IMG/VR virus record: IMGVR_UViG_3300029079_000072
Location: 1-12,923 of that record
Direction: 5' to 3' (one strand)
DNA from: a virus
Lineage: Duplodnaviria; Heunggongvirae; Uroviricota; Caudoviricetes
Length of the DNA: 12,923 nucleotides
Shown here: positions 8,749-9,241 of the stretch, one piece after another
How positions within the stretch are numbered: the stretch's first letter is position 1
How the letters are laid out: each line of letters opens with the position of its first letter
Translations under genes and position numbers: made by a program
The notes under the pieces: model-generated
Told to the model about the DNA's origin: nothing
The model's input: the letters and a program-made list of their open reading frames with translations, nothing else
The model's database searches: none

Positions 8749-9000
8749 ATGAAAATCAGAAATATTCTCGCTATCTCCCTTGCAACATCATCCTTCAGTT
8801 GCCTGGCATTTAAATCCTCGCCCAATGTGCTACCAGGACCAACGAATCAACTAACTGCGGTAGAAAGTAAAATTATCGGACATTTTTATGCCCCACACAG
8901 TGCATTACCCGGAACAACCATCACAGGGACATGTGACGCCTCCCCCGTCCCGGGATGCACCTGTCCGTTTTGTACTATGCTGCGTAGCCAAAACCGATAA
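8749..9000 (+). CDS. Small secreted protein (83 aa) with signal peptide and C-terminal Cys motif; function unknown
   Basis: ATG at 8749 is preceded by AGAGG at a 9-nt spacing. The N-terminus MKIRNILAISLATSSFSCLA is signal-peptide-like and the C-terminus carries C-x8-C-x-C-x2-C (CDASPVPGCTCPFC). It is transcribed opposite to the late operon, like lambda bor. Confidence 0.5.
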   Translation: MKIRNILAISLATSSFSCLAFKSSPNVLPGPTNQLTAVESKIIGHFYAPHSALPGTTITGTCDASPVPGCTCPFCTMLRSQNR

Positions 9001-9061
9001 CATCCGCATTTACCTGGTATTACATGATGAGTTCACGCAGCGACTGATAGAGGAAGGAAAG

Positions 9062-9241
9062 ATGGTTAGTAAAAGCAAGGCGCATTGCCGCCGCATGCTG
9101 CAGGCATTGCAACAGACGAGAGCAGGTATTTTTGACCAGTTGGAAAACTGCCAGCATACTTTGCCCGAGTATATCGCCATCTCATCGGAAACCAGTGCAA
9201 CTCTTATTCATCGGGTTCCACCAGAGAAAAAGAAGAAATGA
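9062..9241 (+). CDS. Small hypothetical protein (59 aa), basic C-terminus
   Basis: ATG at 9062 is preceded by a strong GAGGAAGGAAAG ribosome-binding site; ends with KKKK. No recognisable homology. Confidence 0.45.
   Translation: MVSKSKAHCRRMLQALQQTRAGIFDQLENCQHTLPEYIAISSETSATLIHRVPPEKKKK

Follow-up and report, generated by a model that had tools for sequence, protein, structure and literature searches.

What do the two small open reading frames (ORFs) on the plus strand between the cohesive-end site (cos) and a TonB_C lipoprotein gene of IMG/VR record IMGVR_UViG_3300029079_000072 encode, and is either of them a gene? The window analysed here, the 12,923-nt stretch at its full length, covers the right end of a lambdoid E. 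coli prophage related to phage 21 (Jouyvirus), with its late genes on the minus strand. An earlier note on this DNA had placed two ORFs opposed to the late operon in this interval, and both are present, opposed to the lysis and terminase genes. Judged by its conservation, the first (ORF A) is a genuine, mostly unannotated gene; on the sequence evidence below it would be a new, unannotated lambdoid moron and an envelope protein of a Zur-regulon family, to which we would assign, by inference, a function in zinc handling. The main new result, the presence of its non-phage relatives in zinc-starvation loci, points to a link with zinc that appears both specific and testable. The second (ORF B) is most likely either decaying or there by chance. 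The features of ORF A, in window coordinates, are:

8736..8739, plus strand: Shine-Dalgarno (SD) sequence GAGG of ORF A, 9 nt before the ATG
8749..9000 (stop codon included), plus strand: ORF A, 83-aa precursor, supported by conserved homologues, substitution ratios and third-position bias
8749..8808, plus strand: Sec signal peptide of 20 codons, with a predicted signal peptidase I (SPase I) cut CLA/FK between A20 and F21
8932..8973, plus strand: cysteine motif C62-x7-C70-x-C72-x2-C75 (GTCDASPVPGCTCPFC), from the family alignment

Homologues of ORF A are widespread and constant in length. Among 5.8 billion proteins searched, relatives of 83-84 aa with 55-77% identity were found in Salmonella (subspecies salamae, arizonae, diarizonae and indica), Citrobacter and Klebsiella, and a scan of species-representative genomes added one from Buttiauxella. 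A profile search of 1.84 billion representatives yielded about 25 further clusters of 79-86 aa from Enterobacter, Klebsiella, Salmonella, Serratia and Pantoea, every one of them labelled 'hypothetical protein'. The family overall, from at least seven genera (Salmonella, Citrobacter, Klebsiella, Buttiauxella, Enterobacter, Serratia and Pantoea), spans ~27-77% identity at a conserved length of 80-85 aa. A degenerate DNA pattern scan returned mostly chance matches, with true family members at 11 of 120 loci after hidden Markov model filtering.

The pattern of substitution is that of a protein-coding sequence. The pairwise ratio of non-synonymous to synonymous substitution rates (dN/dS) is 0.06-0.39, with dS saturated between genera, and codon position 3 holds 50 of the 79 nucleotide differences between ORF A and a second E. 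coli prophage allele. Conservation in a three-way DNA alignment starts at the SD of ORF A and stops at its stop codon, and the homologues carry purine runs resembling an SD at equal distance. Polymorphism across 80 near-identical E. coli loci amounts to four synonymous and five non-synonymous changes, with no insertions or deletions (indels). Conservation at this position in related prophages, on which the earlier note had let its reading depend, is borne out: ORF A is present and intact at all 72 IMG/VR prophage loci, as a 72%-identical allele in a variant E. coli prophage, and in phage 21 itself.

The product had been described as an 83-aa protein with a signal peptide and a C-terminal cysteine cluster. 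Both are real and conserved far beyond chance, with a mature part of ~63 aa; the cysteine spacing given at the time, C-x8-C-x-C-x2-C, is corrected by direct reading to C-x7-C-x-C-x2-C. Export was assessed by a rule-based check on a 29-sequence family alignment. The signal consists of MKIR, then ILAISLATSSFS, then C-L-A/F, and the cleavage consensus of the family is [A/C]-[L/M]-A/F: position -3 is A in 14 of the 29 sequences and C in 12, position -1 is A in 27, and position +1 is F in 27. With a basic n-region, a hydrophobic core (mean Kyte-Doolittle value of the h-region ~1.2-2.0) and small residues at -3 and -1, the features of Sec export with SPase I cleavage are all found, and the product is predicted to be Sec-exported by way of this site. 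A lipoprotein (SPase II) reading, with Cys18 as the lipobox cysteine, was rejected: Cys18 is preceded by S-F-S, which puts no L, V or I at -3 and an F at -2, the residue is Ala in 14 of 29 relatives, and A20-F21 is fixed. Half of the family has Ala at position 18, which marks it as the -3 residue of a SPase I site rather than a lipobox cysteine. Cys18 loosely agrees with a PROSITE-like lipoprotein rule.

The mature part begins with a variable, probably disordered stretch, followed by a predicted helix, ESKIIGHFYAPH, and then by a conserved tail, G-T-C-x-A-x-P-V-x-G-C-x-C-[PA]-[FY]-C-x-x-L-R, in which a helix begins at C-P-F-C. C62, C70 and C72 occur in all 29 sequences and C75 in 28; G60, P66, G69, L78 and R79 are each found in 28, and E39, Y47 and H50 are frequent across the 29 relatives. 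The earlier note could match this protein to no known family, and we find no named-family match either. Pfam gave no match for the window protein at E<=1 and, for the 29 relatives, two single weak matches to unrelated families only (DUF4148 and PT-VENN). NCBIfam, PHROGs and PADLOC likewise gave no match, a sequence profile search of the PDB returned a chance match only, and a literature search by accession numbers and topic found no paper on the family. Two Asn-rich long proteins from the representative search, P0045 (627 aa) and P0047 (611 aa), have an N-terminal ubiquitin-like region and 4-5 repeats of P-[IL]-P-G-C-N-C-P-K-C-T-x-L-R-N. These repeats share C-x-C-x2-C...LR with the ORF A tail, which hints, at the level of sequence, that this motif is an independent small (possibly metal-binding) module.

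A possible role for ORF A comes from the neighbourhoods of its relatives. In Pantoea the gene stands in the order dksA2-folE2-gamma-carbonic anhydrase-thrS, family member, cobW (COG0523), zur, cysS. In a divergent metagenome member (L130) it lies between a dksA paralogue and cobW, and in the P0040 type it is downstream of cobW on the same strand. On the K. pneumoniae plasmid pBio30 it is found between aztDCBA and a cluster of zinc-independent paralogues (thrS, M14 carboxypeptidase, dihydroorotase and hemB paralogues), and on Klebsiella IncF plasmids a Fur-family regulator and cobW (a COG0523 GTPase) lie beside a cos remnant and the gene. In the four Salmonella subspecies 95 nt separate it from its upstream neighbour pliG, which we identified through PDB entries 4dy3 and 4dy5, and it is followed by a bor homologue, directly next to it, and an omptin gene.

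The published E. coli Zur box reads GAAATGTTATA-N-TATAACATTTC and TGWNAYRWTATAWYRTNWCA (PMC4219657). Sites were scored as matches out of 18 to this pattern, with shuffled sequences as controls. The boxes found, with their scores and positions, are:

pBio30: 17/18, at -113
P0040 type: 16/18, at -94, with a second box of 17/18 preceding cobW
C. koseri: 16/18, at -47
Serratia inhibens: 16/18, at -44
Pantoea: 16/18, at -48
Buttiauxella: 15/18 with a perfect 12/12 core, at -41
Citrobacter JGM124: 15/18, at -46
L130 (metagenome): 15/18, at -77
Salmonella pliG: perfect 12/12 core, upstream of pliG

Zur boxes of 15-17/18 are thus found in eight independent contexts of family members at -41 to -113, and few or no shuffled sequences reach these scores. 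When the ~10-kb loci were scanned, each match of at least 16/18 preceded either a family member or another zinc gene. Carrying both a box and zinc neighbours, family members outside phage-21-type prophages have the sequence hallmarks of the Zur regulon, and the family appears to be an undescribed member of that regulon in several genera. Citrobacter sp. JGM124 has a further palindrome, TGAGAATAGTTCTCA (L012, 3840-3880), in the region between the gene and a divergently oriented fecI-like sigma factor gene; this palindrome is similar to a Fur box and does not coincide with the Zur-like site, which lies closer to the ORF A homologue.

The window copy differs from these relatives in its upstream region, where the following features are found:

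8688..8696, plus strand: putative extended -10 element TGcTATTAT for ORF A, aligning with the Zur-box/-10 region of homologues
8691..8710: Zur operator remnant, left half TATTATGT (8691-8698) kept, right half lost
8696-8707: perfect 12-bp palindrome TGTGCCGGCACA, in place of the right half and overlapping the putative -10

The left half-site TATTATGT doubles as the TGnTATTAT extended -10; a two-hexamer promoter scan did not list the element at 8688-8696. The variant E. coli prophage (L021) has the box GGTTACGTGTTAACGTAACA at the corresponding place in the alignment; it scores 15/18, which 13 of 1000 shuffles attain. No 20-mer within 200 nt upstream of the window ORF A scores above 12/18, which is chance level (741 of 1000 shuffles reach it). 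The window copy was therefore rejected as a member of the Zur regulon: no box is found, and the left half-site alone remains. With the operator lost, expression of the phage copy is probably without zinc control. The simplest reading of these alignments would be that a Zur-controlled envelope gene was taken up as a moron and that its operator has since decayed. The palindrome TGTGCCGGCACA may be a changed operator for another regulator. Other palindromes occur at the same spot, GTTACGT-GTTA-ACGTAAC in L021 and a GCTAGC core in the Klebsiella plasmid locus L005.

Placement supports the view of the earlier note that this is a classic moron position, as ORF A occupies a bor-like slot adjoining cos on the strand opposed to late transcription. 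Among the hallmarks of a moron, the position, the opposite strand and the patchy distribution are seen, the promoter is a guess from sequence, and the hairpin downstream lacks a U-tract. The slot and orientation are shared with Bor, the lipoprotein moron of phage lambda located between Rz and cos, which is likewise a small envelope-protein gene opposed to late transcription and presumably active in the prophage; phage 21 has a bor homologue 1.3 kb from ORF A. The two proteins have no sequence similarity. Bor has a lipobox, whereas ORF A has a SPase I site and four invariant cysteines, and the ORF A family, unlike Bor, has chromosomal members with putative Zur boxes.

These observations can be combined into one explanation, which we favour with moderate confidence: ORF A would be a moron encoding an exported four-cysteine miniprotein of a Zur-controlled family, with a role in envelope zinc handling, and ORF B would be decaying. 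ORF A would then be a functional lysogenic-conversion gene at the very right-hand end of genomes of the phage-21 type, probably read from its own promoter against late transcription and expressed in the lysogen. Its product would be exported by Sec and cut after Ala20 to give a periplasmic or secreted miniprotein of ~63 residues, in which a disordered N-terminal stretch leads into a single amphipathic helix and then into a C-terminal knot that contains the four invariant cysteines. It would belong to an uncharacterised Enterobacterales family whose chromosomal and plasmid members take part in the zinc-starvation (Zur) response, and from the position of those relatives the most likely job of ORF A would be envelope zinc handling under zinc limitation. 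The protein might bind and pass on zinc through a Cys4 (+His/Glu) site, or it might be a disulfide-locked helper of the Zur response; the phage copy, having lost the Zur operator, would probably be constitutive.

That the cysteines bind metal rather than, or besides, forming two disulfides is our inference. The suggestion of the earlier note that the peptide is possibly metal-binding gains indirect support from the Zur and zinc-island contexts of the relatives. Among known proteins, the ZinT- and AztD-type zinc chaperones are comparable in being exported, Zur-induced and active in periplasmic zinc handling, and on pBio30 a relative of ORF A adjoins aztDCBA; they are, however, much larger, His-based and of known folds, whereas ORF A has 63 mature residues and is Cys-based, with a putative zinc role. 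A C-x-C-x2-C run occurs in metal-thiolate clusters such as that of the SmtA/BmtA metallothionein, which we take as a lead only: SmtA is cytoplasmic and has nine cysteines plus His, whereas ORF A is predicted to be exported and has four, and homology between them is undetectable.

Several points weigh against a zinc role. Two AlphaFold runs gave models of low confidence (predicted local distance difference test scores, pLDDT, of 59 and 62), and a Foldseek search of these models against the PDB found no fold match. Tetrathiolate zinc sites are rare in the oxidising periplasm, where four cysteines more often form two disulfides. The whole window contains no match to the Zur pattern with three or fewer mismatches, members of the P0032 type, a mobile-element subgroup, lack Zur boxes, and the adjacencies to Salmonella pliG and in the Klebsiella IncF plasmids may be accidents of prophage-remnant insertion. 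A further step, that the family is an unrecognised component of the zinc-starvation response, an exported Cys4 miniprotein catching zinc or passing it on in the envelope as a 'zincophore' or periplasmic counterpart of the COG0523 chaperones, and that it was captured by phage, freed of Zur and now aids lysogens against zinc withholding by the host, we put forward tentatively. If the zinc role is true, the family would be a new, very small, Cys-based player in periplasmic metal trafficking, next to genes (COG0523, DksA2, FolE2 and Azt) that are heavily studied in nutritional immunity, and the prophage would convert the metal physiology of its host.

The same note had paired ORF A with a 59-aa basic protein that has a very strong ribosome-binding site and is followed by a terminator hairpin. 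The features concerned are:

9062..9241, plus strand: ORF B, 59-aa basic ORF and doubtful gene, with a strong SD GAGG/AAGGA at 9050-9058
9247..9273: GC-rich hairpin with a 12-bp stem and a 3-nt loop, between ORF B and the TonB_C gene

Both this ORF and its SD exist in the window, but conservation lends no support to its being a gene. Protein searches in the correct frame, in two protein collections, recovered near-identical sequences and indel variants only. The frame has no Pfam match, and PHROG 4843, which contains the ORF B protein, has no function attached. A relationship to DUF3950/YlcI-like proteins was rejected, as BLASTP against the L021 DUF3950 protein gives no alignment and Pfam gives no match. 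In a sublineage found on 486 contigs, a 1-nt insertion (+A) after codon 5 cuts ORF B to 24 aa, and ORF A is intact there. Salmonella and Citrobacter lack ORF B downstream of ORF A, a DUF3950 gene takes its place in the variant prophage, and in Klebsiella it is a diverged 30-codon stub before an insertion sequence (IS) element. Its polymorphism (two synonymous and seven non-synonymous changes and two frameshift indels) is neutral-like, in contrast to the 4:5 ratio without indels in ORF A. A conserved two-gene unit is not supported, and the expectation that both ORFs recur in related prophages fails for the second.

A functional two-gene operon, in which ORF A would supply a secreted peptide and ORF B a small basic regulator or partner, would nevertheless fit their arrangement on the same strand with a 61-nt gap, no predicted terminator between them, the strong ORF B SD and the hairpin after it. 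ORF B is also called by PGAP and is intact at 70 of the 72 viral-contig loci, and the Klebsiella stub keeps the strong SD and shows a few synonymous changes in its first 13 codons, its start region being partly conserved. ORF B may therefore once have been, or still be, a real gene. The near-identity of all its homologues, the frameshift, its loss or replacement wherever ORF A has diverged, and the polymorphism make such an operon doubtful, and we are equally doubtful that ORF B is a functional gene at all. Since no terminator separates the two, the transcript of ORF A probably runs on through ORF B; under the combined explanation ORF B would belong to the 3' untranslated part of this transcript, which may end at the 9247-9273 hairpin. 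The hairpin itself is real, at -21.1 kcal/mol (z = -3.0) on the plus strand and -19.8 kcal/mol (z = -2.0) on the minus strand. Its designation as a terminator is unproven: a terminator scan did not flag it, and no U-tract is adjacent on the plus strand. It is a possible end of the plus-strand transcript.

The Salmonella loci bring in a different function for ORF A, that of a disulfide-locked periplasmic inhibitor (PliG-like) directed against host defence, induced by zinc starvation, since this would signal the host environment, and carried as a virulence or fitness moron together with bor and lom. In all four subspecies the gene comes right after the Zur-boxed pliG and before the bor homologue and omptin gene, and bor is also within ~1.3 kb of ORF A in phage 21. 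PliG, the periplasmic inhibitor of g-type lysozyme, is an accepted member of the E. coli Zur regulon (PMC4219657); like the predicted ORF A product it is small, Sec-exported and periplasmic, and in salamae, arizonae, diarizonae and indica its gene directly precedes the ORF A homologue. It differs in its length of 133 aa, its solved beta fold (4dy3) and its lack of the Cys motif, and the two are not homologous. Small four-cysteine periplasmic proteins are typically disulfide-bonded. Soil- or plant-associated Pantoea and Serratia, together with a metagenome contig, instead have the gene among dksA2, cobW and zur, which are core zinc-economy genes, and ORF A has no similarity to known inhibitor families. 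We regard an inhibitor as unlikely and retain envelope zinc handling as the preferred function.

Still less probable, in our view, is a periplasmic superinfection-exclusion or receptor-masking factor, possibly acting with the TonB_C lipoprotein. The moron slot adjoins this phage-encoded TonB C-terminal-domain lipoprotein, and such slots hold exclusion genes in other lambdoid phages; against this, the TonB_C gene is missing from the variant prophage, which also has ORF A, and from all non-phage contexts, homologues of ORF A are Zur-boxed chromosomal genes, and PADLOC gave no match, so that we rate this reading as very unlikely. A secreted toxin-like pre-pro-peptide in the style of heat-stable enterotoxins or bacteriocins is the least credible, since its pre-pro-like layout (20-aa signal, variable middle, conserved 22-aa Cys-rich tail) and its location in a prophage, which with its short length and Sec signal it shares with the STa, STb and EAST1 precursors on mobile DNA, are outweighed by a different number and spacing of cysteines, by the failure of the window protein and all 29 relatives to match the Pfam enterotoxin families (Enterotoxin_ST and STb), by members in non-pathogens and zinc islands, and by the lack of any immunity or export gene travelling with it.

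How has such a gene been overlooked? Three annotation pipelines give three different gene maps over the same 600 bp. RefSeq PGAP calls the doubtful ORF B alone (WP_000253883.1) instead of ORF A, the curated phage 21 record OL657228 calls two antisense ORFs and neither ORF A nor ORF B, and other phage records have ORFs in other frames or an ORF B extended to 117 aa. No record examined, whether E. coli RefSeq or phage, calls ORF A. A classical model phage and ~1,200 complete E. coli genomes thereby carry a conserved gene that annotation has missed. The antisense ORFs are:

8976-9158, minus strand: CPT_21_75 of OL657228
9204-9326, minus strand: CPT_21_74 of OL657228

On locus L002 they are found at 375-557 and 604-726. 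Neither was retained: CPT_21_75 is shortened by a stop in the window and is hit by the ORF B frameshift, and CPT_21_74 has no family match. The long forms of 106 aa (8680-9000) and 117 aa (8888-9241) were also rejected, as homologues begin MK(I/V) and the upstream part is unconserved. The small RNA svsR of the phage-21-like prophage NC-SV is located at the 3' end of cI and is unrelated to this region, and an Rfam scan gave one chance microRNA match (E = 0.88).

The surrounding genes place ORF A in the phage genome:

7896-8405, minus strand: small terminase subunit gene
8589..8601: cos, the reverse complement of GGGCGGCGACCT at 8589-8600, i.e. GGGCGGCGACCT on the minus strand
9364-9690, minus strand: TonB_C lipoprotein gene, 108 aa (Pfam TonB_C, 1e-12)
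10002-10475, minus strand: Rz/Rz1
10957-11490, minus strand: endolysin gene

Aligned to the window, the phage 21 GenBank record has its right end at 8601, and cosQ maps to 8624-8630. No gene follows ORF A towards that end of the phage 21 genome, and prophages of the phage-21 type always have it as the final gene ahead of cos, opposite in strand. Across 8700-9260 the window shares 99.5% identity with phage 21 and with five further sequenced phages. This region is carried by 1231 of 5426 complete E. coli genomes, about a quarter, including ST131-type strains and Nissle 1917, and by seven phage records representing six distinct phages. The window prophage is defective and doubly deleted (at ~7857 and ~11654), and ORF A is intact regardless. 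The left deletion fuses the small terminase gene to the middle of the tail-tip gene J, a junction present in one complete genome only, that of strain DP051. To the right of 11654, past the endolysin gene, the sequence jumps to the DUF968/rem/hok region, which removes Q, the late promoter and the holin gene.

The 72%-identical allele (P0005 type) of the variant prophage occupies the same slot with the same terminase neighbour. Downstream of it come a short ORF resembling a lipoprotein and a DUF3950 gene, not ORF B and the TonB_C gene:

L021 5345-5479, plus strand: 44-aa ORF with a good lipobox (LLSAC), in the slot after ORF A
L021 5641-5835, plus strand: DUF3950 (YlcI-like) gene, in the slot after ORF A

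Homologues of ORF A remain intact in decayed prophages and plasmid remnants. The records of 66 large conjugative Klebsiella plasmids hold a cos remnant and an intact, unannotated ORF A homologue with IS fragments next to it (L005 4820-4860), and Citrobacter koseri has a lone copy adjoining icd, the phage 21 attachment gene. Members of the P0032 type are found in islands that resemble P4, judged from neighbouring genes. In P4-like or phage-like islands of Buttiauxella and Klebsiella a divergent small gene stands ahead of the family member and is a possible conserved partner in these islands:

L020 1048-1272, minus strand: divergent small gene, product ending ...YQWKKP..R(R)
L105 3678-3869, minus strand: divergent small gene, product ending ...YQWKKP..R(R)
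L113 2243-2431, minus strand: 62-aa ORF, assigned by position only

The TonB_C lipoprotein of the window has the signal LLSVLAVGC. PHROG 1267 tags it as an 'Rz-like spanin', which looks like a mislabel, and the protein could rival TonB for the TonB boxes of receptors. Near the window edge lie a rem-like ORF at 12271-12543 and, at the edge itself, an ORF for a Hok-family toxin (MKQQKAMLIALIVICLTVIVTALVTRKDLCEV...) at 12711-12923 on the minus strand.

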